Source of the DNA: an uncultured Geobacter sp.
GTDB lineage: Bacteria > Desulfobacterota > Desulfuromonadia > Geobacterales > Geobacteraceae
Assembly (NCBI GenBank): GCA_937886325.1
Contig: CALABV010000051.1
Location: 7,754 to 71,753, forward strand
Direction: 5' to 3'
Length of the DNA: 64,000 bases
In this document: in pieces, positions 34,737 to 50,522 of the stretch
Numbering within the stretch: position 1 is the stretch's first letter
Layout of the letters: the number at the start of each line of letters is the position of its first letter
Program-made: the position numbers and the translations under genes
Notes under the pieces: generated by a model
The model's input: the letters and a program-made list of their open reading frames with translations, nothing else
Told to the model about the DNA's origin: nothing
The model's database searches: none

Positions 34737-35894
34737 ATGTATGAGAAATTCTTCGAACTGGAGAAAAAGCCCTTCGAACTGGTTCCGAATCCCGAGTTCC
34801 TGTTCCTGAGCAAATCCCATAAAAAGGCGATCGTCTACCTAGACTACGGCCTCAAGGAGCACTCCGGGTTTATCCTTGTAACCGGGGAGGTGGGGTCCGG
34901 AAAAACGACGATAGTCCGCAACCTGCTCAAAAACCTGGACGACACGGTAACCCTGTCCAAGGTTTTCAATACCAAAGTCACATCCGAACAACTCATCGCC
35001 ATGGTGAATGACGACTTCGGCCTGGATACCGCTCACAAGGACAAGATAACCCTGTTGCGGGAACTGACCGACTTTCTCATCGACCAGCATGCCGCGGGCC
35101 GCTGGCCGACCCTTATCATCGATGAGGCGCAGAACCTCTCCGGCGAGTTGCTTGAAGAAGTCCGGATGCTGTCCAATCTGGAAACCGACACCAGCAAGCT
35201 GTTGCAGATAATTCTAGTCGGCCAGCCGGAATTGAGAAAAACCCTGGCCCAGCCGGAATTGAGACAGCTCAGGCAGCGCATCAGCATCAGCTGTCATTTG
35301 ATGCCCTTGTCGAGACAGGAAACCGAGGACTATATTTTCCACCGGCTCGAGATAGCCGGCAACCGTAACGCGGTTTCCTTTGACGACGGAAGCATCGACA
35401 TCATCTACAGCTTCAGCAGGGGGATACCAAGGCTGGTCAATATCATCTGCGACTTTCTCATGCTCTCAGCCTTCGCGGAAGAGACAAGGCGGATGACAAA
35501 GGAACTGGTGCAGGAAGTGATCGGTGAAATAGAAATCGAGAATGCCTATTGGAATGACGTTACCCCTGAAGGCTCGTTTCCGGGGAACAGGACGTTCCTG
35601 TTCGACATCAACGAAAGGCTGTCCCGGCTGGAAGAGTTCGTCGCCCATACCGGCATCACGGAAAAAGAGAAGCTGAATCTTCATGACAGCGTAGCGGGCA
35701 TGGAAAAACATGTATCCACTTTCATGGCAAAGTCGCAAGCCGATATGGCCGTCCTTGACGCCCAGATTAAGGATGCTCTGCGGGAATTCGACGAGCTCAA
35801 AATGAGCGCCTGGATCAACAACGCACGCTCAACGATAGATGTCGCGAGGGCGGAGCCTGAAAAGAAGCGTCTCTGGGGAAGGCTTTTCGGCTGA
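34737..35894 (+). CDS. ExeA-like AAA ATPase (putative secretion ATPase of PEP-CTERM loci)
   Basis: Start at MYEKFFELEKKPFELVPNPEFLF. Walker A GEVGSGKTT, Walker B LIIDEAQNL. The upstream 33 codons of the track ORF overlap the previous gene. Confidence 0.85.
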   Translation: MYEKFFELEKKPFELVPNPEFLFLSKSHKKAIVYLDYGLKEHSGFILVTGEVGSGKTTIVRNLLKNLDDTVTLSKVFNTKVTSEQLIAMVNDDFGLDTAHKDKITLLRELTDFLIDQHAAGRWPTLIIDEAQNLSGELLEEVRMLSNLETDTSKLLQIILVGQPELRKTLAQPELRQLRQRISISCHLMPLSRQETEDYIFHRLEIAGNRNAVSFDDGSIDIIYSFSRGIPRLVNIICDFLMLSAFAEETRRMTKELVQEVIGEIEIENAYWNDVTPEGSFPGNRTFLFDINERLSRLEEFVAHTGITEKEKLNLHDSVAGMEKHVSTFMAKSQADMAVLDAQIKDALREFDELKMSAWINNARSTIDVARAEPEKKRLWGRLFG

Positions 35895-36004
35895 CCCCCC
35901 GCATTGCTGGAAGCGAAAGGTTTTGTATGCGCCGCAGCGTAGGAGTGCACGTCATGCGCACGTTGTTCATGAGTGGTGGAGAGCTATGAGAAGGGGGCCT
36001 GAAA

Positions 36005-36514
36005 ATGCGCACCGAAACTGGAAACTGGTATGCCCTCCATGTCAAGCCTCGCCATGAGTTCGCGACCGACAGCGAGCTGACCCGCAAGGGCATAGCAACC
36101 TGTCTGCCCGCTGTCACAAGGCTCAGGCAGTGGAAAGATCGGAAAAAACTGGTCGATTTCCCCCTCTTCCCCGGATATCTTTTTGTCCGCGTCGAACCAT
36201 GTCATGAAGATTTCAATCGCGTGCTCCGGACTCCCGGCGCGCTGACCCTGCTTTCCACGGTTCCGGGCACGCCGACACCCATCCCCCCCCACGAGATTCA
36301 TTCGCTCATGCTCCTGGTGGAAAAAGCGGGAGACATCGATGTCTACCCTCACCTGACGCCGGGGACCAGGGTACGGGTCCGGAGAGGGATCTTCACGGGG
36401 GCGGAGGGTGTCCTGGTGAAGAAGGAAAGCCATCTGCTGTTTGTCGTCAGCATCAACATCCTGAGCCGGAGTGTGGGCGTGAGGATGTACGCAGATGATC
36501 TGGAAGCGGCCTGA
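36005..36514 (+). CDS. NusG-paralogue transcription antiterminator (UpxY/RfaH-like specialised NusG)
   Basis: NGN domain WYALHVKPRHEF..DFPLFPGYLFVRVE and KOW motif GTRVRVRRGIFTGAEGVLV. 169 aa, preceded by a 110-nt spacer. Confidence 0.85.
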   Translation: MRTETGNWYALHVKPRHEFATDSELTRKGIATCLPAVTRLRQWKDRKKLVDFPLFPGYLFVRVEPCHEDFNRVLRTPGALTLLSTVPGTPTPIPPHEIHSLMLLVEKAGDIDVYPHLTPGTRVRVRRGIFTGAEGVLVKKESHLLFVVSINILSRSVGVRMYADDLEAA

Positions 36515-36637
36515 GGCGGTATTCCGGTCGCTGCATTGCAGGAGAATCGGACCAAAAAAGTGCAATAATCCTTGTCGGTTACGAACGCTCCTGTAACCGA
36601 GGGGGCGGAGCCGTATCACACGCCGGCGCACGTCGCA

Positions 36638-37447
36638 ATGGAAACAGCCATATCTCCCCACTTCAAAATCCTTTTCATTACCCAGGACGACCCCTTCTAC
36701 GTCAGGCTGTTCTTCGAGGAATTCTTTTCAGCCTGTGACGACAGGGAGGAGATCGCGGGGGTGGTGCTGGCCGCGCCCATGGGCAAGAAGAACGCCGCCG
36801 CGCTGGCCCGCCGGATGCTGGACTTCTATGGACCGCTGGATTTCCTGCGGGTCGGTTCTCGCTATGCCGCGTATCGTCTCGGGGACACGATGGCCGGCCT
36901 GACTGGGTGCAGGAAGTCCTTCAGCATCGGGCGACTCTGCAAGGGGTACGGCATTCCCGTTCTTCGGGAAAGCAGGGTCAACTCACCTGAATTCCTGCAA
37001 AAGGTCGCGGAAATCGCGCCGGACCTGATCATTTCCGTGGCCGCGCCGATGGTCTTCAAAAAAGAGCTGCTCGCCGCGCCGCGGTGCGGGTGCATCAATA
37101 TCCACCACGGCATGCTCCCCCGCTACCGGGGGATGCTGCCCAATTTCTGGCAGATGTACCACGGCGAAAAACGGGCGGGCATTACGGTCCATGAAATGAG
37201 CGAGAAACTGGACGACGGAGGGATAATCATCCAGGAAGAGGTGGAGATAGGGTCGGACGAGACGCTGGACGCCCTTATCCGGCGAACCAAGCGGCTGGGC
37301 GCACGGGTCATGATCCGGGCAATCGGCCTCATCAAGGCGGGCGAGGTCTCCTATCGCCCGAACCGCGCGGAGCAGGCTTCGTACTTCACGTTCCCGTCGC
37401 GACGGGATGTGCTGGAATTCAGGCGCAGGGGAAAGAGGATCCTATGA
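36638..37447 (+). CDS. Formyltransferase-family protein (Fmt/ArnA N-domain-like)
   Basis: INIHHGMLPRYRGMLP matches the N-x-H-x-SLLP-x-x-RG formyltransferase motif. Start taken at METAISPHFKILFITQDD; the TTG at 36572 is an alternative. Confidence 0.8.
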   Translation: METAISPHFKILFITQDDPFYVRLFFEEFFSACDDREEIAGVVLAAPMGKKNAAALARRMLDFYGPLDFLRVGSRYAAYRLGDTMAGLTGCRKSFSIGRLCKGYGIPVLRESRVNSPEFLQKVAEIAPDLIISVAAPMVFKKELLAAPRCGCINIHHGMLPRYRGMLPNFWQMYHGEKRAGITVHEMSEKLDDGGIIIQEEVEIGSDETLDALIRRTKRLGARVMIRAIGLIKAGEVSYRPNRAEQASYFTFPSRRDVLEFRRRGKRIL

Positions 37448-39426
37448 GCCGGGGCATGTTCGGCATAGTCGACTTCACCACTCCGGTCGATGAGCGCGAC
37501 GCAACAGCCATGGAAGCCTTTCTCGACCGTAATACCGGCCGCGAAGAAAAGACTGCCGTTGCCTGCGGCACACACTACTTCCTTGCCATGAAGCGGCCCG
37601 CTGGCGAGGTCCCCCGGCGACAGCGCGAAATCGCCGGGAACCGGGAGACAGGGACTGCCTGCATCATCAACGGCGAGATACATAATTGCCCGGAGCTATG
37701 GGACGAACTGGGCGAGGATGCTTCCTCCCACGCCGGCGACCTCGACCTTGCCCTGCTTCTCTATCTCCGCCACGGCCGGGACTTCGCGAAAAAGATCAAC
37801 GGCCTCTTTTCCCTCGGCGTTCTGGACAGCCGGGATCCGTCGTTCCGGCTCTACGCGGACCGCTTCGGCATGGCCCGACAGGTGTACTGGACCACGGTCG
37901 GGACCAGGCTCTTTTTCGCCACCCATCTCAAGACGCTGCTGGCCTGTCCCGGCGTCGGGAAAGAGCTGGACCCCGAGGGCCTGAACCTGTTCCTGAAATA
38001 CGCCTACATCACCTCGCCGTGGAGCATCTTCAAAGGCATCAGAAAACTGCAACCCGGCCACCTGCTAACCTTTCGCAAGGGAAAGGCAGAGGAGGTTCCC
38101 TGGTGGGATTTCTCCGCGGCAACGACCACCGTCTCCGACTGGGACGATGCCGTCAGCCGCTACCGGGAAATCCTCCGGAGGTCCATTGAACGGCGGCTCG
38201 GCGACCCGTTACGCACCGGCATCCTGCTGAGCGGCGGCCTCGATTCCAGCGCCAACGTGGCGCTGGCCGCCCGCTGCACCGACCGGCAGCTCACCACCTT
38301 CGCCATCGGTTTCGAGGACCCGCGCTTCGACGAGCGGCCCTATGCCCGCATCGTGGCCGATTATTTCGGGGCGAGGCATCACGAATACACCATCACCGGC
38401 AACGAGATAGAGGATCTGCCGACGCTGCTCTGGCACATGGAGGAGCCCTATTTCGAATTCGGGCTTTTCCTCACCTACCGCGGCCTTGCCGCGGCGGCCC
38501 CGGAGGTTGACGCGGTCATCGGCGGCGAGGGCGCCGATCAGATGTTCGGCACGGGCGGCTTTGCCGGGGCACGGCCGGCCGCTGCCCAGTATCTGTTGCG
38601 CAGGTCCGGGCTCATGGGAGCGGCCCGCCGGTTCGGGCGACTCCTGCGAGGCCCCTTTTTCTATGACCGGGACACCTGGGCCTTCAAGCTCAGGCTTTTC
38701 TGGAACCGGGCAACCGACCTGAACGACTGGTACTTCTACGGCTACGATGAGCATGAACTTCTCCGGGCCTGCCGGAACCCCGACATGGCCCGGGTGCCGC
38801 GCATCTTCGACGGACAGCAGGTGGATGCCTCGTCATTCGCGGCCCTGTACCGCAATACCCAGATCCACCAGGACATCCGCCACTACGTCAATGAAAACGT
38901 CATGGTGAAATCGGGCCGCATGGCCGATATGCTCGGTATTACCCTGCACGAGTCCTTTCTCGATACCGAGGTTGCGGACTTTCTGGTGGGCCTCGAATTT
39001 TCCTACAAGCGCGGCGGTGATCTGGTCGATCACCTGCGGGGGCGGGCCGTATCCAAACTGCTGCACCGCAGGGCTATGGCGGGGATCCTCCCCGAGGAAA
39101 TCCTGCACAAGCCGAAACAGGGGGGATTCGTGCCGGTGATGCTCTTCCTCCGTGACGGGAGCCTGCGGCGGAAAATCTACGACTACCTCCTTCGCTCCAG
39201 GGTCATGGAAGAATATTTCAGGAACGACTACCTGAAATTCCTGTTCGCCTCCTACGAGGAACACCAGTCGAAACCGGTATCCTGGGCCAACTTTCTCAAC
39301 TCCAAGGCCAACCGCATCCTCTTTCTCCTCACCTTCGACATCTGGCATCGGTATTACCTGGAAAACGACCCGCTACAAGTGGAAGTGACAACCTTGAGCG
39401 AGTATCTGGGATCGGCGAACGGCTGA
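37444..39426 (+). CDS. Asparagine synthase (AsnB) family amidoligase lacking the N-terminal Cys nucleophile
   Basis: PP-loop GILLSGGLDSS and an AsnB-like C-domain are intact. The N-terminus reads MSRGMFGIVDF instead of MCGI. ATGA overlap with the formyltransferase stop. Confidence 0.85.
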   Translation: MSRGMFGIVDFTTPVDERDATAMEAFLDRNTGREEKTAVACGTHYFLAMKRPAGEVPRRQREIAGNRETGTACIINGEIHNCPELWDELGEDASSHAGDLDLALLLYLRHGRDFAKKINGLFSLGVLDSRDPSFRLYADRFGMARQVYWTTVGTRLFFATHLKTLLACPGVGKELDPEGLNLFLKYAYITSPWSIFKGIRKLQPGHLLTFRKGKAEEVPWWDFSAATTTVSDWDDAVSRYREILRRSIERRLGDPLRTGILLSGGLDSSANVALAARCTDRQLTTFAIGFEDPRFDERPYARIVADYFGARHHEYTITGNEIEDLPTLLWHMEEPYFEFGLFLTYRGLAAAAPEVDAVIGGEGADQMFGTGGFAGARPAAAQYLLRRSGLMGAARRFGRLLRGPFFYDRDTWAFKLRLFWNRATDLNDWYFYGYDEHELLRACRNPDMARVPRIFDGQQVDASSFAALYRNTQIHQDIRHYVNENVMVKSGRMADMLGITLHESFLDTEVADFLVGLEFSYKRGGDLVDHLRGRAVSKLLHRRAMAGILPEEILHKPKQGGFVPVMLFLRDGSLRRKIYDYLLRSRVMEEYFRNDYLKFLFASYEEHQSKPVSWANFLNSKANRILFLLTFDIWHRYYLENDPLQVEVTTLSEYLGSANG

Positions 39427-39432
39427 ACCGCA

Positions 39433-40257
39433 ATGAACCGTCTCACCCAACCGGCCAAGGGGCCGAGAGTCCCCATCCTCATGTATCACCAGGTCGTAGA
39501 GGACGGCGAACGGAACAGAAAGGCACGGCGTACCAATCCCGCTTATACGGTGACTATCGACCGTTTCCGGGAACAGATGGGCTGGCTGGCCGAAAACGGC
39601 TACCGCTCGCTGACGCTGGATGACGTGTTGGCTCCGGGCTGCCCGCTGGAAAAGGGCGTGGTCATCACCTTCGACGACGGCTGGGCCGACAATTTCTCCC
39701 ATGCCCTGCCGATCCTCGGGGAGTTCGGACTGGGCGCAACGGTCTTTGTCGTTACCGGTTTTGTCGGCACGACGGGCTACCTGGACTGGGAGCGGCTGCG
39801 GGAAATGTCCGGGTGCGGCATCTCTCTCCAGTCGCACACGGTCAGCCATCGGCCCCTGGAGGAGTTGGGAGACGATGAGGTGGCGGAAGAACTGGGCGCG
39901 TCGAAGAAAGCCCTGGAAGACCGTCTGGGGACCGCGGTTGATTTCGTAAGCATGCCCCAGGGGTCGTGGAACCGGAGAATTCTGGGAGCGGCCCGGGCGG
40001 CCGGGTACCGCGGCGTCTGCACGTCGGAACCGGGCTTCCGCCATTCCCTCGGCACGCCCGCGGTCTTCTCCCGCATCAATGTGGCGGACAGCATTCCGAT
40101 TTCGTTCTTTGCCCGGATAGCGCGCATGGATCGAAGCTTCATTCTGCCGGTCCTCGCCGCCACCAAATTCAAACGGGCGGTGCGGTCTCTCGTGGGATAC
40201 CGAATGTATCGACTCCTGTACCGGCTCCGTTACCGCATCAATGAGGAAGGGCGATGA
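39433..40257 (+). CDS. Polysaccharide deacetylase (NodB homology domain), paralogue 1
   Basis: ILMYHQV.., VITFDDGWADN, LQSHTVSHRPL. Confidence 0.85.
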   Translation: MNRLTQPAKGPRVPILMYHQVVEDGERNRKARRTNPAYTVTIDRFREQMGWLAENGYRSLTLDDVLAPGCPLEKGVVITFDDGWADNFSHALPILGEFGLGATVFVVTGFVGTTGYLDWERLREMSGCGISLQSHTVSHRPLEELGDDEVAEELGASKKALEDRLGTAVDFVSMPQGSWNRRILGAARAAGYRGVCTSEPGFRHSLGTPAVFSRINVADSIPISFFARIARMDRSFILPVLAATKFKRAVRSLVGYRMYRLLYRLRYRINEEGR

Positions 40258-40338
40258 GCCCAAAAAGGGCAACCACACGGGGTTGCCCCTACACGAGAGG
40301 CCATCCGGAACGTAACATCGAATGAGAAGCGCACCGAC

Positions 40339-41322
40339 ATGAAAACAGCCCTTACCTACAGCGCGACCACCGACTATCCGGCCCATCGGGAAGGGATGCT
40401 CGACCTGTATCAAAGGTCCTACGGCAAGGAAAACCAGGCATTCTACGACTCATTCTATGCCGGCAACCCCTTGGGGGAACCGTTCCTCTTTCTCTGCCAC
40501 GACGGGAACACCCTCGTGGGCCAGGAGAATTACCTGCGCCAGTCAGTTGCCTGCGACGGCAGGCTCCTCTCCGCGGGACTCGGGGTCAACACCCTCGTGG
40601 ATTCTCGCTACCGTCTCCTGCACGGGGTTTTCGGCAGGCTCTGCGCACTTTCCCTGGAAAGACTGGCGGGAGAGTTCGACATGCTGTGCGCGTTCGCCAA
40701 CGAGGAATCGAAGAAATACTATCTGAAAAACTACGGCTGGCAGGTTGTCGCAAAGGTGCAGGTATACAAGAAGGCAACCAGGTTCTCCGGGTTGCGCGCG
40801 GAAAGCCTTCTTTCCCTGCTCCGGCCGGGCGGCAGACGCACCGGGCTCAGGCTGGCGCGGACCGATGAGTTCGACCCTTCCCTGCTCGATCCGGTCATCG
40901 AACACTGCCGGGCAGGCTCCCGGTACATCTGCTTCCACAAGACAGCGGCCTTCCTGAACTGGAAATTCCTGCGCAACACCCACTACCTGATACACGGCTA
41001 CTACATCATGTCCGGGGACCGGATCAGCGGCTACTGCCTGACCTATGACAGCGGCATCGAGCGGAGGGTCATCGATCTTCGCATTGAGGGTGATGATAGC
41101 GTACTCATGGACAAGACAGTGGCGACACTCTCGTCCATGACCAGGGAAGACGGGTTGTCGCGCCTCGTCATCCACGCCGTTCCGGGTTGCTGGTACGAAA
41201 AGACCCTCAAACGCCGCTTCTTCATCCGCCGCTGGGAATACGATTGTATCGCCCGTCCTGTGAGGGAAGAGCTCCCGTCCGGGGACTGGGTCATCCAGTT
41301 GGGAGATTTCGACATGTTCTGA
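40339..41322 (+). CDS. FemAB/GNAT-like acyl- or aminoacyl-transferase
   Basis: 327 aa; size and position before the ACP/ligase pair match my recollection of the PEP-CTERM-associated FemAB-related family. GNAT-like core ..CAFANEESKKYYLKNYGW. Confidence 0.6.
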   Translation: MKTALTYSATTDYPAHREGMLDLYQRSYGKENQAFYDSFYAGNPLGEPFLFLCHDGNTLVGQENYLRQSVACDGRLLSAGLGVNTLVDSRYRLLHGVFGRLCALSLERLAGEFDMLCAFANEESKKYYLKNYGWQVVAKVQVYKKATRFSGLRAESLLSLLRPGGRRTGLRLARTDEFDPSLLDPVIEHCRAGSRYICFHKTAAFLNWKFLRNTHYLIHGYYIMSGDRISGYCLTYDSGIERRVIDLRIEGDDSVLMDKTVATLSSMTREDGLSRLVIHAVPGCWYEKTLKRRFFIRRWEYDCIARPVREELPSGDWVIQLGDFDMF

Positions 41323-41373
41323 ACGGGAGAGGATGGTCCCGGTTTTCCACACATTCCGAAGAGGTGAAATTGC

Positions 41374-41610
41374 ATGAGCATCGAGGAACAGCTGACAACC
41401 TATTTTCGCGAAAACTTTGCCGCTGATGTGGATGGCGAGACCGCGCTTATCGAATCCGGCCTCATCGACTCCATGGGGGTGATGGAGCTTGTGGAGTACC
41501 TGGAACGGTCGTTCGGCATCGAGATGGACATGGACGACCTGACCGTGGACCGGTTCGGCACCATCACGGCAATCAAACAGCTGATAACCGAGAAACAGGA
41601 GGCGATGTGA
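41374..41610 (+). CDS. Acyl carrier protein
   Basis: 78 aa, acidic, with phosphopantetheine-site context GLIDSMGVMELV. SD is GAGGTG. Confidence 0.85.
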   Translation: MSIEEQLTTYFRENFAADVDGETALIESGLIDSMGVMELVEYLERSFGIEMDMDDLTVDRFGTITAIKQLITEKQEAM

Positions 41611-43166
41611 GCATGCGTCCGGCACTGGTGCACCACCTGATTGAGCGGACCGCGGCGCGGCTGCCGGACAAGGTTGCCGTGCGCCATCTGGGCAGGGACA
41701 CAACCTATGGAGAACTCCTGGAAGAATCCCGCCGCATGAAGGAATTCCTCCTGGATGAGGGAATCCGAACCGGTGATCGCATCGGCATTTTCCTGGAGAA
41801 GTCGGTCGAACAGCTGACAGCCATGTTCGCCGTTTCCATGGCGGGCTGCGTGTTCGTGTTCATCAACCCCATCCTCCGGCAGGAGCAGATAGACTACATC
41901 GTCAGGGACTGCGACATACGGCTGCTCGTCACCACCGGCGCCCTGGCCCGGAAGAACAGCCTTACAAGCCCCGGCACGCTGCTGTATGTGGATGAGAACG
42001 GTCCGGGCGGGTTTCCCTGCTGGCCGCGGATCAGGGACCGCTTTCCCGCGGTTCCGGGAACGGTGCGCCGCATTCCCGACGACACTGCCTGCCTCATCTA
42101 CACCTCCGGTTCCACCGGCATGCCCAAGGGGGTGGTGGTGCCGCACCGCACCGTGGTCGAAGGCGCGGAAATCGTGAGCGGCTACCTGGGGATCACCGAA
42201 AACGACCGCATCGTGAGCGTGCTCCCCTTCAATTTCGACTACGGACTCAACCAGGCGACCACCTCGATCCTGCACGGCGCCACGCTCGTCATGCACCAGT
42301 TCATTTTCGCCAAGGACCTGTTGAACCTTCTCCGGGACGAGGAGATCACCGGCTTTGCCGGGATGACCCCCATCTGGGCCAAACTGTTCGGCGGCAAACA
42401 CACGCTGAAGGCGGAGATGAGCTTTCCCGGGCTCCGCTATATCACCAACACCGGCGGCAAGGTTCCGCGGATCGTGGTGGAGCGGATCCGGGCGTTTTTC
42501 CCGGACACAAAGTTATTCCTCATGTACGGCCTGACCGAGGCTTTTCGCTCCACATTCCTCCCTCCCGAGGAGATAGAGCGGCGGCCCGACTCCATCGGCA
42601 GGGCCATCCCGAACGTGGAGATCCTGGTCGTAAACGAGAAGGGGGAGGAGTGCGCTCCGGGAGTCCCGGGAGAACTGGTCCACCGGGGCGCGCTGATAAC
42701 CCGTGGCTACTGGAACGACCCCGAGAAGACGAGGCAGGTGTTCCGGAGAAACCCCCTTCTGAACGGCCGGGAACACCTGAACGAGACGGTCGTCTACTCG
42801 GGCGATCTGGTGAAAAAGGACGAGGACGGCTTTCTCTACTTCATCTCGCGCAGGGACGAGATGATCAAGACATCGGGGTACCGGGTCAGCCCCACCGAGG
42901 TGGAGGAGATCCTGGTGGAGATACCGGGCGTGAGCAATGCGGTGGTGTTCGGCCGCGAACTGGAGAGCGGGGACCAGGGCATCATCGCCGTGGTGGAGAC
43001 GGACAGCTCCGACACGAAACATCTTCTCGCCGAATGCCGCAGGCGGCTGCCCGCCTACATGGTTCCCCACGAGATCAACTGCGAACCGGAGTTCCCGAAA
43101 ACCGCAAACGGCAAGATAGACCGCTCGTTCCTGAAGAGCAAGTGGCAGGGAGGCATGGACGGGTAA
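41607..43166 (+). CDS. AMP-forming acyl-CoA/acyl-ACP ligase (adenylate-forming superfamily)
   Basis: AMP-binding motif LIYTSGSTGMPKGVVV, SGDLV..DGF, and a C-terminal K in TANGKIDR. The GTG overlaps the ACP stop (GTGA). Confidence 0.9.
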   Translation: MSMRPALVHHLIERTAARLPDKVAVRHLGRDTTYGELLEESRRMKEFLLDEGIRTGDRIGIFLEKSVEQLTAMFAVSMAGCVFVFINPILRQEQIDYIVRDCDIRLLVTTGALARKNSLTSPGTLLYVDENGPGGFPCWPRIRDRFPAVPGTVRRIPDDTACLIYTSGSTGMPKGVVVPHRTVVEGAEIVSGYLGITENDRIVSVLPFNFDYGLNQATTSILHGATLVMHQFIFAKDLLNLLRDEEITGFAGMTPIWAKLFGGKHTLKAEMSFPGLRYITNTGGKVPRIVVERIRAFFPDTKLFLMYGLTEAFRSTFLPPEEIERRPDSIGRAIPNVEILVVNEKGEECAPGVPGELVHRGALITRGYWNDPEKTRQVFRRNPLLNGREHLNETVVYSGDLVKKDEDGFLYFISRRDEMIKTSGYRVSPTEVEEILVEIPGVSNAVVFGRELESGDQGIIAVVETDSSDTKHLLAECRRRLPAYMVPHEINCEPEFPKTANGKIDRSFLKSKWQGGMDG

Positions 43167-44407
43167 TGGAGCTCAACGAGCGTAACGGAAAGCTCTGCGT
43201 GGGGGATGCCTCCTTCGAAGAAATCGCCGAACGCTTCGGCACACCGTTCTACCTCTACGACCTGGACGGGGTGCGGGAACGGGCAGCCGCGGTTAAACAG
43301 GCCTTCGGCCAGGGAATCGAACTCCTGTTCGCGGTCAAGGCAAACCCCAACACGGAATTGCTGCGGGGTATCCGGGACAGCGTGGACGGCCTCGACATCG
43401 CTTCGACCGGGGAACTGCACCGGGCTTTGGAAGCCGGATTCCGCCCGGACACGATCAGCTTTGCCGGGCCGGGCAAGACGCGGGCAGAACTGCGCGAGTC
43501 GCTCCGGCTCGGGGTCGGCATCATCAGCGTCGAATCGGTGCGCGAGCTGCGTGATCTCAAGGAACTCTCAGAAACGGAGGGCGTTCGGGCGCCCGTCACC
43601 ATCCGCATCAATCCGGCCCTGACGGTAAAGGAGTTCGCCGTCAAGATGGGCGGCAAGGCGACACAGTTCGGCATTGATGAAGAGGATGCGGGCGAGGCGG
43701 CGGACTTTATCAAGGGCAACCCACACTGTTTCGACGTGCTCGGCATCCACGTCTACGCCGGCACCCAGTGCCTCGACGAGCAGGCCCTGGCAGCCGGCCT
43801 TGCCGACACCCTGCGCATAGCCGCAGAGATGCGGGAGCGGCACGGCATCGAATGCCGGGCCATCAACGTCGGCGGAGGGTTCGGCGTCTCCTACTATGAC
43901 GAGGGACGGGCGCTCGACCTGGGACTGCTCGCCCGATTATATACCGACGAGCTTGATCGGTACCGCCGCGAAACGGGAACCAACCCGCGCTTTCTCCTGG
44001 AACTGGGGAGGTACCTGGTAGCCGAAGCCGGCATCTACGTGGCGCGGGTCGTCAGCGAGAAGCGGTCGCGGGGGGAGCAGTTCTATGTCCTCGACGGCGG
44101 CATGAATCACCACCTGGCCGCTTCGGGCAATCTCGGAGCGACGCTCCGGAAGAACTACCTGGTCCGGAATCTTTCCCGGCCCGGCGCGGAAAAGAAAACC
44201 TGCACCCTTGTCGGACCGCTCTGTACGCCCCTGGACCTGATGGGAAAAGGGGTTACCGTCGAATCGCCGGAGGTGGGAGACCTGGTGGGTTTCCTCAACT
44301 CGGGCAGCTACGGGTACAGCGCCAGCCCCCTGTTGTTTCTGGGGCATGAGCCGCCGAAAGAAATCATAGGTTTTGGCGGAAGCCTCAAAGTGGATGACGC
44401 TGAATAA
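43166..44407 (+). CDS. PLP-dependent decarboxylase, Orn/DAP/Arg decarboxylase fold (group IV)
   Basis: Start MELNERNGK at the TAATG overlap with the ligase stop. PLP-lysine motif FAVKANPN. Also GGGFGV and a C-terminal beta-barrel domain. Confidence 0.88.
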   Translation: MELNERNGKLCVGDASFEEIAERFGTPFYLYDLDGVRERAAAVKQAFGQGIELLFAVKANPNTELLRGIRDSVDGLDIASTGELHRALEAGFRPDTISFAGPGKTRAELRESLRLGVGIISVESVRELRDLKELSETEGVRAPVTIRINPALTVKEFAVKMGGKATQFGIDEEDAGEAADFIKGNPHCFDVLGIHVYAGTQCLDEQALAAGLADTLRIAAEMRERHGIECRAINVGGGFGVSYYDEGRALDLGLLARLYTDELDRYRRETGTNPRFLLELGRYLVAEAGIYVARVVSEKRSRGEQFYVLDGGMNHHLAASGNLGATLRKNYLVRNLSRPGAEKKTCTLVGPLCTPLDLMGKGVTVESPEVGDLVGFLNSGSYGYSASPLLFLGHEPPKEIIGFGGSLKVDDAE

Positions 44408-45653
44408 TCACGCCATTGAAATGGTGTGCTCGAAGGCCGGCATGGATACCGAATCCGTACCTGACATGTACGACGAAGTATTTCGATGCGACGACTCGTA
44501 CAGTGTCGGGATAATACGTTCATGGGATCGGTTCCTGGCTCTGCGGGAAACGTGGGACACCCTGGTTGAGCAACACGGGAGCCACTATCCGTTTCTTTGC
44601 CATGACTGGTTCCGCATATGGCTTAAACATTTTCAGGGAACGGCCGGACTTTGTATCGCACTGGTTACAAGGCACCACATACCGACGCTCATAGCTCCGT
44701 TGCTAACAAAGATTGATAAATACAAGAATATTGCGAATGTTAGGAAGATCGAGTTCATAGGGAATCACCATTCTCCCATAAAGTGCTTTATTTTTGGAGA
44801 AAATGAAAAGTCACAGAGAACTGATTCACTTATAGCTTTGTTTCGTTTTTTTGAATTTAATTACAAAAATTGGGACATCCTTGAACTTGATTCAATCCCG
44901 GTTGAAACGTTCCCATGCAGTAACTTGAAAGACATTGCATATAGTTATGGGTTTTCTGTACGTGACTTTGTGAGTTATAACAACTGGTATTTTGATGGAA
45001 TGAATCATTCATCGCAAGCATATTTTTCTAATTTACCTAAAAAAATCCGAGATGAATTGAAAAGACGACAAAAAAGGCTGGAAGAGTCTGGTTCCGTTAA
45101 TTTTATTATTGGCAGTAGCCTGTATGACTTTCCCCGACATATGGATCTCTATGATTGCGTAAGAGCTAGAAGCTGGAAACACCCTGAAAAAAACAAGGAT
45201 TTTCTCTGGGAAACGAGAGAAATGTATGCCTCTAAAGGATTGCTCCGGTTTTGTTTTGTTACTATTGATGATACACCTATCGCGGCTCAGTTAAGAATCG
45301 TATCCAACAGGACCGCATATTTCATGGAAGCACTTCATGACAAGCGTTATAACAACTTTGGACCTGGGAACCTGCTCAGATGGAAAGTTATCCAGCATCT
45401 TCTGGATATAGAGAAAGTATCATCAATTGACCAAATAAGAGGAGATGAAGATTACAAGGAATACTGGACACCTTTCAAGCGAAATAGAATAGGAGTAACT
45501 GTATTTAACACCTCACTAAAGGGGCAATTTTTCAGGATGCTTATGATGGCAGCAGTACCAGTAACCAAGAAAATCAAAATGTTTCTAAAACCAATCAAGC
45601 AAGTGATTCAACGGAATCAAATCACTACTGATTCACTACAAAGACTGGATTAG
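44394..45653 (+). CDS. CelD/BioF2-like GNAT (FemAB-related) acyltransferase, copy A
   Basis: ..FLCHDWFRIWLKHF.. and ..IDQIRGDEDYKEYW.. are shared with the next ORF. Composition becomes AT-rich from about 44.6 kb. Confidence 0.7.
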   Translation: MTLNNHAIEMVCSKAGMDTESVPDMYDEVFRCDDSYSVGIIRSWDRFLALRETWDTLVEQHGSHYPFLCHDWFRIWLKHFQGTAGLCIALVTRHHIPTLIAPLLTKIDKYKNIANVRKIEFIGNHHSPIKCFIFGENEKSQRTDSLIALFRFFEFNYKNWDILELDSIPVETFPCSNLKDIAYSYGFSVRDFVSYNNWYFDGMNHSSQAYFSNLPKKIRDELKRRQKRLEESGSVNFIIGSSLYDFPRHMDLYDCVRARSWKHPEKNKDFLWETREMYASKGLLRFCFVTIDDTPIAAQLRIVSNRTAYFMEALHDKRYNNFGPGNLLRWKVIQHLLDIEKVSSIDQIRGDEDYKEYWTPFKRNRIGVTVFNTSLKGQFFRMLMMAAVPVTKKIKMFLKPIKQVIQRNQITTDSLQRLD

Positions 45654-45654
45654 T

Positions 45655-46824
45655 ATGTCTTCAATACATATCAATTCAATTGATCTGTATGCAACAAATG
45701 GTTTGATAAATTTTGACAATTTATCCTCCATTGAACCTTTATGGGGAATATGCATCGACAAAGAGGCCCCGTATTCACCATATTCTACCTGTGAATGGTA
45801 CAAGCTTTGGCTAACATATTTTATAAAAAATAACACAGCAAGATTATTGTCATTTCATGATGATAATAATGTAAATATAATAGTTCCACTGTTATACTCT
45901 AAATTTAAATACAGAGGTATATTTATATCAAAATATGAACCTATAGGCAATGTATATTCTCCGATACGCAATATGGCTATATACAGTAATTGTAGTTTTA
46001 TTGATAATATTGATATTGTATTTGAACAAATCATAAGCAATGAGAATAAATGGGATATCATCGACATTTGTGAGGTTTCTAACGAGAGCAATTGGTTCTC
46101 TTCAGCATCAGAATTCTTCATCAGGAAAGGATTAGATATCAGGGAATATGATTGTTACGAAAATTGTTATTCAGACTGCATAACTGGAACAAGTGAGGGG
46201 TACTTCAACAACAGATCAAAAAGTTTCAGATTGAGCATTAGAAAGAACTACAACAGGTTGTCAAAAGCCGGCGATATCAGCTTCAGGGTGATCACCGGGG
46301 TGGCCGATTGTTCTGACTATTACGATTTATACAGCAGCATATATTCAAAGAGCTGGAAACGGAGAGAGAGTATCGGACTAGACTTCTTTCCTGACATGCT
46401 CAGATATGCCGAGAAGAATAATTGGCTGAGAATTGGTATTGTGTATCTTAACGAGTGCCCGATTGCAACTGTATTTGTGGTTGTTGCAGGGAAGCATGCC
46501 TATTTCGAAAAAGTTGCTTTCGACGAAGAATTTCGGAACTTCGGCGCAGGGTCGGTGTGCCTTTATGAGATGATTAAATATGTAATAGATGTCGACAAGG
46601 TGTCCGTTATCGATTTCCTGAGAGGCGCTGATGAATACAAGAAGCATTGGGTTGCTAAATGCAGAAAAAGAAAAGGGATGATGATCTACAACAATACGAT
46701 TCGAGGCAAATATCTATCCTTTGTAGACAATAAAATAGCACCTTTTGTCAACAATAACAAATTTTTGTCAAATATAAAAAGAATAGTGGTATCGACTTAC
46801 AAAAATGCAGGCAATGTTGAATAG
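45655..46824 (+). CDS. CelD/BioF2-like GNAT (FemAB-related) acyltransferase, copy B
   Basis: ..STCEWYKLWLTYF.. and ..IDFLRGADEYKKHW.. parallel copy A. Very AT-rich. Confidence 0.7.
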   Translation: MSSIHINSIDLYATNGLINFDNLSSIEPLWGICIDKEAPYSPYSTCEWYKLWLTYFIKNNTARLLSFHDDNNVNIIVPLLYSKFKYRGIFISKYEPIGNVYSPIRNMAIYSNCSFIDNIDIVFEQIISNENKWDIIDICEVSNESNWFSSASEFFIRKGLDIREYDCYENCYSDCITGTSEGYFNNRSKSFRLSIRKNYNRLSKAGDISFRVITGVADCSDYYDLYSSIYSKSWKRRESIGLDFFPDMLRYAEKNNWLRIGIVYLNECPIATVFVVVAGKHAYFEKVAFDEEFRNFGAGSVCLYEMIKYVIDVDKVSVIDFLRGADEYKKHWVAKCRKRKGMMIYNNTIRGKYLSFVDNKIAPFVNNNKFLSNIKRIVVSTYKNAGNVE

Positions 46825-48034
46825 GATAGGAGGAAGATCTGCTGCTTCACTGTGCAGCTATTTATGCAGACGTGATAGATTTAATCAATTCCCGTTTCCT
46901 CTCAACAATGCTGGAGAAATGTATTATTTCAGCGCACGATATGCACTTTCGGCTGGGATACAAGCCCTTGGAATTAAAAAAGGTGAGACTGTCTTGTTGC
47001 CTGCGTATAATTGCGGAATAGAAATTGAGCCGTTTCATTATTTAGAAGTCAATATTGATTTTTATCGAGTAAATTATGACTTAACTTTTGACATTGAAGA
47101 TATTACTAGACGAATGCGGAAAGGAGTTAAAGCTGTTTTGATAACGCATTACCTGGGTTTTCCGCAAGCCGTAGAAGAAATCCGTGAACTTTGCAACAAA
47201 TGGAATGCGTATCTGATTGAAGACTGCGCACATGCGCTGCTTAGTTCAAGCAACGGGAAAGACCTCGGAACGACTGGTGACATCTCGGTTTTCAGCCTGT
47301 TGAAGACTCTCCCGGTGCCGAACGGTGGAGTGCTGGTAATCAATAACCCGAAAACCAGGGTTCAGAGAGAAGAGTGCAGACCCAGCGTCTTTTCGACACT
47401 TTACTACCTTGCCGATCTGAAGAGACAGAAAACCAGTTCCGACAACCTCGCCACGGCCCTTATGGAATATCTGGTCTCCTCACTATTCTGGCATGGGGTA
47501 AACGTGGCAAAGCTTGCAGCTGCGGCAGTTGCCAAAGTAACCGGTAGAAAGATAGTGTCCTTCGTACGGCCCGATTCATACGTTTTCAAATCTGAAATCC
47601 TGAATTGGGGGATGTCGCCCCTCTCAATCAACATCATTAACACAACAAATTTCGATCTGTTAAAGGAAAGAAGGAGGGATAATTTCAAACACCTTCTGAA
47701 AAGGCTCTTTCAGTCAGAAATCCGGCAAGAATTCGGTTTCCCCATCGAAACCCTTCCCAATGGGGTTTGTCCGCTCTTCTTTCCCCTTCTCGTCAAGGAA
47801 GACGGCAAGCGTGAATACCTGTACCTGGCGCTGAAGGAACAGGGGATTGCGTCTCACCCCTGGTGGGACAGGTTTCACCCCGCGGTTCCGTGGGAGGAAT
47901 TTCCGGAAGCGGTCACTCTCAAGGAGAGGCTGCTCGGGATCCCGATCCACCAGGATCTCACGTTCGAGCACCTGGATCGCATAATCCTGGAACTGGAAAA
48001 AATTTGTCGCACCTTGCGCACAAGCAATGTCTGA
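46805..48034 (+). CDS. DegT/DnrJ/EryC1/StrS-family PLP enzyme (sugar aminotransferase/dehydratase-like)
   Basis: ..LLPAYNCGIEIEP.., ..LITHYLGFP.., IEDCAHAL, and GDISVFSLLKTLPVPNGG (PLP Lys context). Confidence 0.75.
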   Translation: MQAMLNRIGGRSAASLCSYLCRRDRFNQFPFPLNNAGEMYYFSARYALSAGIQALGIKKGETVLLPAYNCGIEIEPFHYLEVNIDFYRVNYDLTFDIEDITRRMRKGVKAVLITHYLGFPQAVEEIRELCNKWNAYLIEDCAHALLSSSNGKDLGTTGDISVFSLLKTLPVPNGGVLVINNPKTRVQREECRPSVFSTLYYLADLKRQKTSSDNLATALMEYLVSSLFWHGVNVAKLAAAAVAKVTGRKIVSFVRPDSYVFKSEILNWGMSPLSINIINTTNFDLLKERRRDNFKHLLKRLFQSEIRQEFGFPIETLPNGVCPLFFPLLVKEDGKREYLYLALKEQGIASHPWWDRFHPAVPWEEFPEAVTLKERLLGIPIHQDLTFEHLDRIILELEKICRTLRTSNV

Positions 48035-49496
48035 TATCAAGGTACTGATAAAGCAGTCATCCCACTATTTTGCCGGACAGGCCGCGATACTGGCAGCGGG
48101 GTTCCTCTCCTTTCCCATCCTGACACGTATTTTCTCGGTAAGCGATTACGGGCTCATGAGCCTTGTCACAACCACGCTGTTCATCGCGGTGGCCATCGTC
48201 AAGTTCGGAATGCCTACCTCGATAGTGCGATTCTATGCCGAGTACCGTGCCTCCGGCAAGCTTTCCTCCTTCATGACAACGATTTTTCTCGGAGTCTCAA
48301 GCTTTGCGATACTTGCAGGCGCATTCCTTGTCCTAGGCATTCAGCTTTTCGGGGATCTTTTTCACGACAAGAATCTGACGGCTATGATTCCCATAGTGTC
48401 TCTGCTGATTGTTTCTGGCTCCATGAACGATATTTTCATGAGTTTCATGAGAGCCGAACAGAGGACAAGACTCTATAATATCATTGCAATCTGTAGAAGG
48501 TACATGACTCTGGCATTTGGCATCACCTTCACTCTGTATCTGATACAGGGTGTAAGAGGATTTTTTGTCGGTCAATTGTTATCCGGAATCATCATTTTTG
48601 TGGTTTTGCTCTTTCTTGCAAAGAAAATGTTTGTATTAAAGAAAGTATATTTCTCGAAGGATATTTTCAAGACTTCACTTAAATTCGGGTTTCCCTTAGT
48701 ATGGGCTGAATTCGGCCACCTGATCCTGAACTATGTCGACAGATACCTCATTCAGTTCTTTCTCGGAGCAGGCGCACTCGGAATGTATACAGCAGGCTAT
48801 AACCTCGCAACACACATAACCGAAGCAATAATCTACCCCATCAACTATGCAATGACACCGGTGTACATGTCTATTCTGGTAAATAAGGGAGAGACTGAAA
48901 CGAAAGTGTTTTTTACAAAGATGTTCAGGTATTTCATTCTTGTGCTGCTGCCGGTGGTGTTCGGAAGCATTGCCGTGGGAAGGGATCTGATCTCCATCCT
49001 GGCGTCAAAGAAATACCTTGAGTCTTACACCGTCCTTTCCTACGTGCTGATAGGCCAGGCGGTGTACGCCTGCACCATTATCCTCAACAGCGGCCTGTTC
49101 ATCAACAAGAAGACGCATGTGCTGAACAATATCATGATTGCAACATGCGGTATCAATGTGCTGCTCAATATGGCGCTGATACCACGCTTCGGAATCGTCG
49201 GCGCGGCCCAGGCGACTCTCCTTTCCTATATTCTGTATGCAATCGTGGTTGTTTTCTTCTCGTTCAGGGAATTCAGTTTCCATATCGATTTTCGCCGTAT
49301 CCTCCTGTACACAGGCTCGTCGTTCCTCATGTTTTTTACGGTAAAGACAATCGACGCAGGAAACAGCCTGCTGAATGTACTCATGCAGATTGTGGCAGGC
49401 GCCGCCGTTTACATCACAACGGTGGTGCTGTTCGACACGGAGATACGCCGCACCCTGTCGGCATCCATGGCAACCATACGGAATCGGGGTTCCTAG
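48027..49496 (+). CDS. wzx: Wzx-type polysaccharide flippase (MOP superfamily)
   Basis: 489 aa, ~12-14 hydrophobic helices, N-terminus typical of polysaccharide biosynthesis proteins (SHYFAGQAAILAAGFLSFPILTRIFS). Confidence 0.8.
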   Translation: MSDIKVLIKQSSHYFAGQAAILAAGFLSFPILTRIFSVSDYGLMSLVTTTLFIAVAIVKFGMPTSIVRFYAEYRASGKLSSFMTTIFLGVSSFAILAGAFLVLGIQLFGDLFHDKNLTAMIPIVSLLIVSGSMNDIFMSFMRAEQRTRLYNIIAICRRYMTLAFGITFTLYLIQGVRGFFVGQLLSGIIIFVVLLFLAKKMFVLKKVYFSKDIFKTSLKFGFPLVWAEFGHLILNYVDRYLIQFFLGAGALGMYTAGYNLATHITEAIIYPINYAMTPVYMSILVNKGETETKVFFTKMFRYFILVLLPVVFGSIAVGRDLISILASKKYLESYTVLSYVLIGQAVYACTIILNSGLFINKKTHVLNNIMIATCGINVLLNMALIPRFGIVGAAQATLLSYILYAIVVVFFSFREFSFHIDFRRILLYTGSSFLMFFTVKTIDAGNSLLNVLMQIVAGAAVYITTVVLFDTEIRRTLSASMATIRNRGS

Positions 49497-49500
49497 GGTG

Positions 49501-50520
49501 ATGAAAAAGCTGGTCAAGCAAGTCCTCTACCTGGTCGTGTACTATTCCGGCATGCTCCGCTTGCTGATAGCGCTTTGCGGAAGGCCCGGAAAAAACCATC
49601 GCGCAGTGTTCCTCTTCTACCACCGTTTCCGCCGCCCCGGCGAAGGCGCGAAGGACCTCCTGCCGCGACTGGATTGCGAAGAGTTCGACCGGCAAATGGC
49701 ATACCTGAAAAAAACCTACGAAATCGTGAGTCTCGATGACTCGGCAACCCTGCTTCGGGAGGGAAAGGGTTTCAGGCGACCTTCCATCATCCTGAGCATA
49801 GATGACGGGTACAGGGACAACTATACGCTGGCGTACCCGATTATCAGAAAACATGACCTGCCGATCACCATCTTCCTCACTGCCGGCTTCATCGGCGGGG
49901 ATGCGGGTCTCTGGCTTGACGACATCGAATACGCGCTCCGGAGCACGGCCTGTCAAGGTTTCAGTCTTGAGAAGGTCCTGGGGAAGGAACGGGTTGACAT
50001 CTCAAACCAAGAGGGGAAGAAAGACGCCGAAAAAAAATTATACGCCGCACTGGTGAAAAAAGGGAAACGGGAGAGGCAGGATGCCCTGCGGGAGCTGTTC
50101 TCCGTCCTGGATGTTCCCGAGCCGTCCGTTTCCGGCCGTGAGCGCATCATGATGAACTGGGAAGAAGTGAACGAGATGGCGGCAAACGGTGTAGATTTCG
50201 GGGCGCACTCCGTGTCGCACTCGTTCCTCCCCGCCATGCCTCCTGACGAGGCGAAACGGGAAATCCTGGACTCGAAACGGATTATCGAGGAAAAGACGGG
50301 GAGAACGGTGCGTCACTTCGCCATTCCCAACGGCAAGAACGATGATTTCTCCCTGGAATTGACGGAATTCTGCAAGGAAGCGGGTTTCGATACGGTCGTC
50401 ACCACCGAACCGGGAGTCGTTGGATGTTTTTCGGATCCCTATTCCCTTGCGAGAATACTTCCGCCACCTCCCACCTATTATTTTGCCTGCGAACTGGCAA
50501 GATACATGCTCAGGAGGTAA
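49501..50520 (+). CDS. Polysaccharide deacetylase (NodB domain), paralogue 2
   Basis: Start MKKLVKQV just after the wzx stop. Contains LSIDDGYRDN and FGAHSVSHSFL. Confidence 0.82.
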   Translation: MKKLVKQVLYLVVYYSGMLRLLIALCGRPGKNHRAVFLFYHRFRRPGEGAKDLLPRLDCEEFDRQMAYLKKTYEIVSLDDSATLLREGKGFRRPSIILSIDDGYRDNYTLAYPIIRKHDLPITIFLTAGFIGGDAGLWLDDIEYALRSTACQGFSLEKVLGKERVDISNQEGKKDAEKKLYAALVKKGKRERQDALRELFSVLDVPEPSVSGRERIMMNWEEVNEMAANGVDFGAHSVSHSFLPAMPPDEAKREILDSKRIIEEKTGRTVRHFAIPNGKNDDFSLELTEFCKEAGFDTVVTTEPGVVGCFSDPYSLARILPPPPTYYFACELARYMLRR

Positions 50521-50522
50521 AT

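Follow-up and report, generated by a model that had tools for sequence, protein, structure and literature searches.

Within a 64-kb stretch of DNA from an uncultured Geobacter sp. (hereafter, the window, to which all positions refer), four open reading frames (ORFs) fill positions 40339–44407 head to tail, all on the plus strand. They specify proteins of 327, 78, 519 and 413 amino acids (aa): in this order, a tandem-GNAT acyltransferase, a stand-alone carrier protein, an adenylating ligase of the ANL superfamily and a pyridoxal phosphate (PLP)-dependent decarboxylase. A preliminary description of this DNA had placed the ORFs correctly, and the motifs it quoted (DSMG, LIYTSGSTGMPKG and FAVKANPN) are all present. 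The start/stop overlaps by which it joined the carrier, ligase and decarboxylase genes are also real. In the GTGA junction, the ligase start GTG (41607–41609) overlaps the carrier stop TGA (41608–41610), while in the TAATG junction, the ligase stop TAA (43164–43166) overlaps the decarboxylase start ATG (43166–43168). However, GTG is only one of two possible starts for the ligase: an in-frame ATG at 41613, with AGGAGG at 41597–41602 upstream, is equally good or better, so that the carrier and ligase genes either share 4 nt or are separated by 2 nt.

The ligase, which contains CLIYTSGSTGMPKG, matches TIGR03098 with 675.2 bits (cut-off 592.35; E = 5e-203), and the decarboxylase, which contains FAVKANPN, matches TIGR03099 with 496.2 bits (cut-off 478.45; E = 7e-149). 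Both families are classed as “hypothetical equivalogs”; they owe their names solely to the link with exosortase A and have no assigned reaction, as the preliminary description had stated. In the window, the two genes that pass these cut-offs are adjacent and lie amid markers of an XrtA/PEP-CTERM system.

The ligase is of the AMP-binding (ANL) type. Its best single-domain match amongst PDB sequences is VinN (3WVN; 224 bits); the multi-domain gramicidin synthetase tops the list only through the summing of two adenylation domains. Over the segment that forms the specificity pocket, VinN scores 64.8 bits versus 32 for the next protein. VinN (PDB entries 3WVN, 3WV4 and 3WV5) uses Asp230 to bind the β-amino group of its substrate; its Phe231 and Ser299 are bulkier than their counterparts in α-amino-acid domains, and its β13–β14 loop, which carries Lys330 and Arg331, is shorter by one residue (reviewed in PMC11253843). 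The enzyme charges the stand-alone carrier VinL with (2S,3S)-3-methylaspartate or, less efficiently, with L-aspartate. The PLP-dependent VinO accepts the amino acid only after it has been bound to the carrier, so that the thioester has to be formed before decarboxylation (PMC11284099). The alignment of VinN with the window's ligase is ungapped in the pocket (VinN to window: D230-F231 to D-Y; TNS, with S299, to TNT; TECKRI to TEAFRS). Asp230 and Arg331 are kept, Lys330 is replaced by Phe, and the β13–β14 loop is equal in length to that of VinN. Asp230 is conserved in 75 of 77 ligases of the family, and so is Arg331 (75 of 77). Generic long-chain-fatty-acid-CoA ligase models match the window's ligase at 292 bits, below their cut-off, and the DltA model scores 175.4 bits with a cut-off of 559.85. 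By its pocket, the ligase is predicted to charge the carrier with an acidic amino acid, attached via the side-chain carboxyl.

When the decarboxylase was compared with all PDB sequences, BtrK (7RU7 and 2J66) came first with 295–296 bits, and the best diaminopimelate (DAP) decarboxylase scored 176. BtrK can be aligned with it over the whole length, PLP lysine included. Entry 7RU7 was deposited as “L-glutamyl-[BtrI acyl-carrier protein] decarboxylase”, and BtrK indeed converts Glu-S-BtrI into GABA-S-BtrI on an 87-aa carrier protein (PMC7857480). The lysA model (TIGR01048) matches the window's decarboxylase with 285.4 bits, below its cut-off of 297.9. Hence, neither of the findings that were to count against the preliminary description was made: the ligase does not group with ordinary fatty-acyl-CoA ligases, nor the decarboxylase with housekeeping LysA, and both identities were rejected on these scores. 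Some members of the TIGR03099 family do exceed the lysA cut-off as well: L056 (L056:9953–11248) scores 305.9 versus 297.9, with TIGR03099 far higher. Relatives of the decarboxylase are often labelled “diaminopimelate decarboxylase” in public sources, which is likely a systematic misannotation, and the name “acyl-CoA ligase” for TIGR03098 is probably misleading too. The decarboxylase is instead predicted, from its kinship with BtrK, to act on a carrier-bound amino acid. A PLP-dependent α-decarboxylase requires a free α-carboxylate and a free α-amine, which leaves only the side-chain carboxyl for the attachment of a tethered substrate; the VinN and Btr systems both use it in this way.

The carrier protein contains GLIDSMGVMELV, with the serine of the DSMG motif. 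It matches the PP-binding family with 30.6 bits (cut-off 20.8), and its top PDB sequence matches are peptidyl and D-alanyl carrier proteins.

To place the cassette in a wider context, one genome per species was scanned with an alignment of the decarboxylase. At least 541 loci matched, and the 80 best were surveyed. These come from Geobacter, Burkholderiales, Acidobacteriota, Myxococcota, Nitrospira, Planctomycetota (Scalindua and Blastopirellula), cyanobacteria, Spirochaetales, Chloroflexota, Actinomycetota, Margulisiibacteriota, Omnitrophota and bins of Patescibacteria, and there are Saccharibacteria amongst the close relatives. The ligase occurs in 74 of these 80 loci and the carrier in 65, where it adjoins the ligase or the decarboxylase; the genes are mostly contiguous and on the same strand. 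Of 62 loci with enough flanking DNA, 58 include the ligase and 53 both ligase and carrier. The trio is thus a tightly coupled unit, as the preliminary description had it, and is co-conserved across phyla. It is not confined to exosortase systems: XrtA-type marker genes occur within 10 kb in only a minority of the loci, and the cassette is far more widespread than XrtA-type loci.

Two architectures can be told apart. In type A, to which the window belongs, the genes for carrier, ligase and decarboxylase are contiguous. In type B (16 loci: L003–L015, L018, L019 and L061; for example, L011:4069–11221), the order is GNAT, carrier, ligase, methylaspartate mutase S, mutase E, a GlmL-like protein and decarboxylase. 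Type B hosts are mostly Burkholderiales, Acidobacteriaceae, Methylococcaceae, Competibacteraceae and Nitrosospira. Mutase S is identified with 154.9 bits (cut-off 110) and mutase E with 413 bits (cut-off 390), whereas the type B ligase and decarboxylase score 509 and 421 bits, each under the cut-off of its family (TIGR03098 and TIGR03099, respectively). It is thus type A, with the window as a true member, that the catalogued families represent, and the mutase-linked module appears to be an uncatalogued subfamily. In the 64-kb window itself, a tblastn search for glutamate (methylaspartate) mutase S, E and L gave nothing better than E = 0.69. At positions 230, 231, 234, 299 and 329–331, the window's ligase is identical to the mutase-linked ligases (Y, N and T at 231, 234 and 299), and in a neighbour-joining tree (without support values), the window's decarboxylase is the sister of the mutase-linked clade. 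The occurrence of the mutase beside a VinN-like ligase, a carrier and a decarboxylase is, by analogy with vicenistatin biosynthesis, the strongest single argument for aspartate-type substrates. The substrate called unknown in the preliminary description can, therefore, be narrowed down: VinN/VinL/VinO, BtrI/BtrK and the mutases of the sister loci together point to an acidic amino acid loaded by its side chain.

In five acidobacterial loci (L005, L012, L013, L018 and L061), a complete type B and a complete type A module occur side by side, each with its own type of GNAT: the mutase-linked module has a GNAT of ~240 aa, and the mutase-free module, on the opposite strand, a tandem GNAT of ~340 aa. 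Such pairing is expected if the GNAT is the dedicated transferase of each module. In the mutase-free module, the ligase mostly has Ala, not Tyr, at the position of VinN Phe231, a sequence difference that hints at a different substrate.

The preliminary description had seen FemAB/GNAT-like transferases on both sides of the trio. This is apt for the downstream pair, whose only family match is Acetyltransf_6 (PF13480), and for the GNAT nature of the upstream protein, but the latter is not FemAB-like. It scores 24.3 bits with Acetyltransf_9, under the cut-off of 25, and has no match amongst NCBIfam families or PDB sequences. A confident AlphaFold2 model built with 47 homologues (pLDDT 92.3; pTM 0.90) was compared with known structures using Foldseek, which returned Eis-family and uncharacterised tandem GNATs, a glucosamine N-acetyltransferase and N-myristoyltransferases (TMq 0.58–0.70), while the top 50 hits included no Fem protein, FemX included. 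Judged by this model, the upstream transferase is an Eis-like tandem GNAT. FemAB membership was rejected for all three flanking transferases, upstream and downstream: none matches TIGR03019 or the Pfam FemAB family. In sum, the sequence comparisons indicate that the cassette is neither LysA nor DltA nor FemAB.

A GNAT-fold gene lies beside the trio in 48 of the 80 loci. Four types occur: the window's type, homologous to ORF cluster c6 of the survey (hhalign probability 98.5%; E = 2e-15), clusters c22 and c10, and the Acetyltransf_6 group. Save for weak GNAT-domain matches, the latter three have no demonstrable kinship with the window's GNAT. The order GNAT, carrier, ligase, decarboxylase recurs in most of the 23 loci that carry the window's GNAT type. 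Homologues of the Acetyltransf_6 genes are found near the trio in 16 of the 80 loci, in some of them between carrier and ligase.

The cassette sits within a long operon in a Wzx/Wzy-type XrtA/PEP-CTERM exopolysaccharide locus (Table 1), as the preliminary description had it. The gene string runs from a NusG-like gene via genes for a formyltransferase-like protein, an AsnB-like amidotransferase and a CE4 deacetylase to the GNAT, carrier, ligase and decarboxylase genes, followed by the two Acetyltransf_6 genes, a DegT-like gene and Wzx. From 36572 to 46824, intergenic gaps do not exceed 81 nt or the genes overlap, and terminator-like sites are not enriched across 35500–50600 (13 found versus 16.4 expected).

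Table 1. Coordinates and principal matches of the cassette genes and their neighbours in the window.
Feature	Position	Strand	Remarks
NusG-like (UpxY-type) protein, head of gene string	36005..36514	+	NusG domain 68.9 bits
Formyltransferase-like protein, 291 aa	36572..37447	+	Formyltransferase, Fmt and ArnA N-domain models, all below cut-off
Asparagine-synthase-like (AsnB-like) amidotransferase, 660 aa	37444..39426	+	TIGR03108 202 bits, asn_synth_AEB 201 bits; both below cut-off
CE4 polysaccharide deacetylase, 274 aa	39433..40257	+	Polysacc_deac_1 94.8 bits
Tandem-GNAT acyltransferase, 327 aa	40339..41322	+	Predicted transferase, carrier protein to acceptor
Stand-alone carrier protein, 78 aa	41374..41610	+	DSMG phosphopantetheine serine; PP-binding match
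ANL-superfamily adenylating ligase	41607..43166	+	519 aa from GTG 41607; 517 aa from ATG 41613
Alanine-racemase-fold PLP decarboxylase, 413 aa	43166..44407	+	TIGR03099
Acetyltransf_6 (BioF2/FemAB-related) GNAT 1	44442..45653	+	PF13480 81.3 bits; no NCBIfam match
Acetyltransf_6 GNAT 2	45655..46824	+	PF13480 92.5 bits
DegT/DnrJ/EryC1-like PLP enzyme, 409 aa	46805..48034	+	PF01041 95.4 bits

For the first Acetyltransf_6 GNAT, the mechanically called ORF begins at TTG 44373; we chose ATG 44442, which matches the start of the homologue L024:11271. The aminotransferase family match of the DegT-like protein is confined to residues 44–185, and homologues with the same partial match accompany Acetyltransf_6 genes in nine other loci and in G. 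metallireducens. An AsnB-like gene is found near the trio in 19 of the 80 loci.

Matches above curated cut-offs in the window are PrsT, the TIGR03013 glycosyltransferase, TIGR03027, TIGR03007, TIGR03018, TIGR03016, TIGR03015 and TIGR03006. The XrtA-locus markers thus include an export protein, a chain-length determinant, a tyrosine kinase, the TIGR03016 outer-membrane protein, the TIGR03015 ATPase and the TIGR03006 deacetylase. The exosortase gene itself, xrtA, was not matched amongst the window ORFs scanned; the locus reaches the end of the window, and xrtA may lie outside it. Directly after the TIGR03006 deacetylase, where XrtA loci often have a gene annotated as FemAB-related, 56698–57846 specifies a 382-aa protein in which only a trypsin/HtrA-like protease domain (residues ~180–340) was recognised. 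Two further ORFs inside the polysaccharide locus, 50424–51977 (517 aa) and 60340–61902 (520 aa), have no Pfam or NCBIfam matches at all. Near the end of the window, an ATP-grasp gene (61908–63011; cyanophycin-synthetase-like) overlaps a GNAT gene (62927–63697). The latter weakly resembles the GNAT that accompanies mutase-linked modules (tblastn E = 0.002), and the pair (61908–63697) may provide the locus with another unit for the addition of amino acids.

The nearest relatives are found in Geobacteraceae. In G. metallireducens GS-15, where the orthologues lie at 2248867–2270126 of CP000148.1, the gene order is identical from the formyltransferase-like gene, the first enzyme gene of the conserved block, through the DegT-like gene; a cultured, genetically tractable organism thus carries the cassette. 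Unlike in the window, no NusG-like gene was called in G. metallireducens (L082) between the ATPase and the formyltransferase-like gene. The position of the CE4 deacetylase gene is kept in G. metallireducens GS-15 and in the Geobacter relatives L001, L002 and L024. The GC content is 0.63 in the decarboxylase gene, 0.40 and 0.36 in the Acetyltransf_6 genes and 0.47 in the DegT-like gene; the drop (44407–48034) begins directly after the stop codon of the decarboxylase, and the four-gene cassette thus borders on a less conserved section. The same drop is present in G. hydrogenophilus (L001) and absent in L024 and L002, which suggests that the section downstream of the cassette was horizontally exchanged, although the gene types are conserved.

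Four known systems are instructive for what the cassette may do. The vicenistatin and fluvirucin pathways likewise combine a stand-alone ANL adenylation enzyme, a stand-alone carrier and a PLP enzyme that decarboxylates the carrier-bound amino acid (VinN/VinL/VinO, with the glutamate mutase VinH/VinI; FlvN for L-aspartate). VinN and the window's ligase share Asp and Arg in the pocket as well as the shortened loop, and the type B sister loci, with mutase S, E and L between ligase and decarboxylase, mirror the logic of the vicenistatin starter unit; the window has no mutase. The second ligase (VinM), the acyltransferase (VinK), the peptidase (VinJ) and a polyketide synthase (PKS) were not found by family searches of the scanned window ORFs, where the downstream partner is, instead, a tandem GNAT in a Wzx/Wzy polysaccharide locus and the neighbours are polysaccharide genes. 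In the butirosin pathway (BtrI/BtrJ/BtrK), the amino acid is also tethered to a carrier, its decarboxylase is the best solved relative of ours, and the product is finally moved to an amino sugar. The loader, however, is the ATP-grasp enzyme BtrJ and not an ANL ligase, the only ATP-grasp gene in the window being the cyanophycin-synthetase-like one 17 kb away. Butirosin-type transferase, γ-glutamyl cyclotransferase and monooxygenase families had no match in the scanned window ORFs, and the window's substrate is probably of the aspartate type rather than glutamate. The cassette thus resembles the first steps of the Vin/Flv and Btr pathways but is not a member of them, since it lacks the mutase, the ATP-grasp ligase and the enzymes that act further along these pathways.

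The other two systems concern the cell surface. In the Dlt system, a stand-alone ANL ligase (DltA) likewise loads an amino acid onto a small carrier (DltC, weakly similar to the window's carrier) for the decoration of a cell-surface polymer. Its transfer route is MBOAT/DltD and not a cytoplasmic GNAT and, to our knowledge, it has no decarboxylase. In the Wbp/Vim system of type IX secretion, the CE4 deacetylase VimE, the GNAT VimA and the amidotransferase WbpS swap a sugar's N-acetyl group for an aminoacyl group, the free amine of which (on an N-seryl or N-glycyl linking sugar) accepts the C terminus of the sorted protein; the authors speculated that exosortase systems also use an amino-acid-modified sugar as the acceptor (PMC7468200). 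The operon in the window has the same three enzyme types (CE4 deacetylase, GNAT and AsnB-like amidotransferase) beside the trio. It differs in that VimA transfers serine or glycine, with no dedicated carrier, ligase or decarboxylase described (PMC7468200), and in the type of its GNAT, which has no TIGR03019 match.

We consider it moderately likely that the cassette makes a carrier-bound β-amino acid that is used to decorate the exopolysaccharide, which is also the drift of the preliminary description: a carrier-tethered amino acid, decarboxylated and then transferred by a GNAT, is the reading that the evidence favours. In the first step, the ligase would adenylate the side-chain carboxyl of an acidic α-amino acid and thioesterify it to the phosphopantetheine arm of the carrier. 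L-Aspartate is the most likely substrate in the window organism, 3-methylaspartate being possible if a glutamate mutase is specified elsewhere in the genome. The α-amino acid end would stay exposed, its amine held by the pocket Asp and its α-carboxylate by the Arg. In the second step, the BtrK-like decarboxylase would strip off the α-carboxyl to yield β-alanyl-S-carrier (3-aminoisobutyryl-S-carrier in the mutase-linked sister loci). For both steps, we argue from homology to biochemically characterised enzymes and from gene context. In the third step, for which we infer both the enzyme and the acceptor, the Eis-like tandem GNAT would pass the aminoacyl group on, most likely to the amine of a de-N-acetylated amino sugar. 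We propose this transfer because Eis enzymes N-acylate the amines of amino sugars and a gene for a CE4 deacetylase lies immediately upstream; by analogy with VimE (PMC7468200), this deacetylase may free the amine of an N-acetyl amino sugar to serve as the acceptor. The acceptor would be part of a nucleotide- or lipid-linked repeat-unit precursor, modified before Wzx/Wzy export, and the polysaccharide would gain a primary amine.

A bolder extension is that the β-alanyl or 3-aminoisobutyryl amine on the exopolysaccharide sugar is the nucleophile that receives the cleaved C terminus of PEP-CTERM proteins from exosortase A. There would then be parallels both to type IX secretion, the sortase of which uses an N-seryl or N-glycyl linking sugar, and to sortase A with its pentaglycine bridge, and the cataloguing of the genes as exosortase-A-associated would be explained. 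We nevertheless think it rather improbable.

A number of observations weigh against the proposed formation of a β-amino acid for the exopolysaccharide. With no mutase in the window, aspartate, 3-methylaspartate and glutamate are all possible as the amino acid, and the pocket residues were rejected as a means to separate aspartate from 3-methylaspartate, since the window and mutase-linked ligases are identical there. VinN Lys330 is Phe in the window's ligase family. The only solved close relative of the decarboxylase, BtrK, uses glutamate and not aspartate, VinO, without a solved structure, being outside that comparison. As to the transfer, the usual donor of a GNAT is an acyl-CoA, whereas an acyl carrier is proposed here, and the acceptor could also be a lipid, a protein or a small molecule. 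We know of no reported polysaccharide with a β-alanyl or 3-aminoisobutyryl substituent, although no targeted search was made. Lastly, the survey relies on simple ORF calling of our own and on single-linkage clustering of BLAST matches.

The first alternative to consider is a butirosin-like glutamate version, in which L-glutamate is loaded via its γ-carboxyl, decarboxylated to 4-aminobutyryl-S-carrier and then transferred. The substrate of BtrK, γ-Glu-S-BtrI, speaks for it, and so does the failure to find a mutase in the window; moreover, the Ala (instead of Tyr) at position 231 in many type A ligases could fit a longer chain. The window's own ligase, however, has Tyr231, as in the mutase-linked (3-methylaspartate) ligases. 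It is an ANL enzyme closest to VinN, which takes aspartate-type substrates, and has VinN's shortened loop; it is not an ATP-grasp enzyme like BtrJ. The decarboxylase, too, groups as sister to the mutase-linked clade in the neighbour-joining tree, which is without support values. We hold the glutamate version to be unlikely.

The aminoacyl-carrier could also serve another end than the polysaccharide: it might go into an amino lipid or a small secreted metabolite, for example, or modify PEP-CTERM proteins directly. Indeed, the best NCBIfam matches of the carrier, albeit far below cut-off, are carriers of ornithine-lipid and small-molecule pathways, and GNAT-fold N-acyl synthases that use acyl-ACP (acyl-carrier protein) and make lipids exist. 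Yet, the recognisable neighbours across phyla are GT4 glycosyltransferases, polyprenyl-phosphate glycosyl-phosphotransferases, O-antigen-ligase/Wzy-like proteins, Wzx, CE4 deacetylases and DegT-like proteins, and amongst the recurrent clusters of the surveyed loci, there are no PKS, non-ribosomal peptide synthetase (NRPS) or lipid-synthesis genes; we give such products little chance. It is highly improbable that the trio consists of housekeeping paralogues brought together by chance, with a LysA-type diaminopimelate decarboxylase, an ACP of fatty-acid synthesis and a fatty-acyl-CoA ligase. Matches to fatty-acid-CoA ligase models (292 bits) and to lysA (285 bits) speak for this, as do the public “diaminopimelate decarboxylase” labels, but these matches stay below cut-offs, whereas those to TIGR03098 and TIGR03099 are above theirs. 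BtrK leads all DAP decarboxylases by 120 bits. In the ligase, the Asp with which amino-acid adenylating enzymes bind the amine is present, and so is the Arg that binds the carboxylate in VinN; gene order and overlaps are conserved across many phyla.

In the literature searched, no paper names TIGR03098 or TIGR03099, by name or accession, and none brings glutamate mutase together with exosortase or PEP-CTERM; the cassette genes are also absent from the paper that first described PEP-CTERM. Papers on the spore-coat genes ExoG/H/I of Myxococcus were sought as a parallel for the set of Acetyltransf_6 and DegT-like genes; nothing was found, and the parallel was dropped. The preliminary description had regarded the chemistry as not normally seen in Wzx/Wzy pathways. 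Carrier-tethered β-amino-acid chemistry has its precedent in antibiotic biosynthesis; its use in polysaccharide loci does seem undescribed, as we found no paper on a role in Wzx/Wzy polysaccharides or on the mutase-containing sister module.

For genes that had a catalogue name only, substrate class and product can now be predicted: an acidic amino acid and the β-alanyl-type thioester made from it. If the proposed formation of a carrier-bound β-amino acid for the exopolysaccharide is correct, the annotations “diaminopimelate decarboxylase” and “acyl-CoA ligase” on members of these families are probably wrong, and a chemistry so far known from macrolactam and aminoglycoside antibiotics would be a widespread decoration of surface polysaccharides. 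The exopolysaccharides of Geobacter, Acidobacteria, nitrifiers, anammox bacteria and some candidate phyla should then bear β-alanyl or 3-aminoisobutyryl amines, which would provide a concrete candidate for the exosortase acceptor. Such amines would alter surface charge and the binding of metals and minerals, and would thus be relevant to Geobacter biofilms and to the formation of flocs in wastewater.

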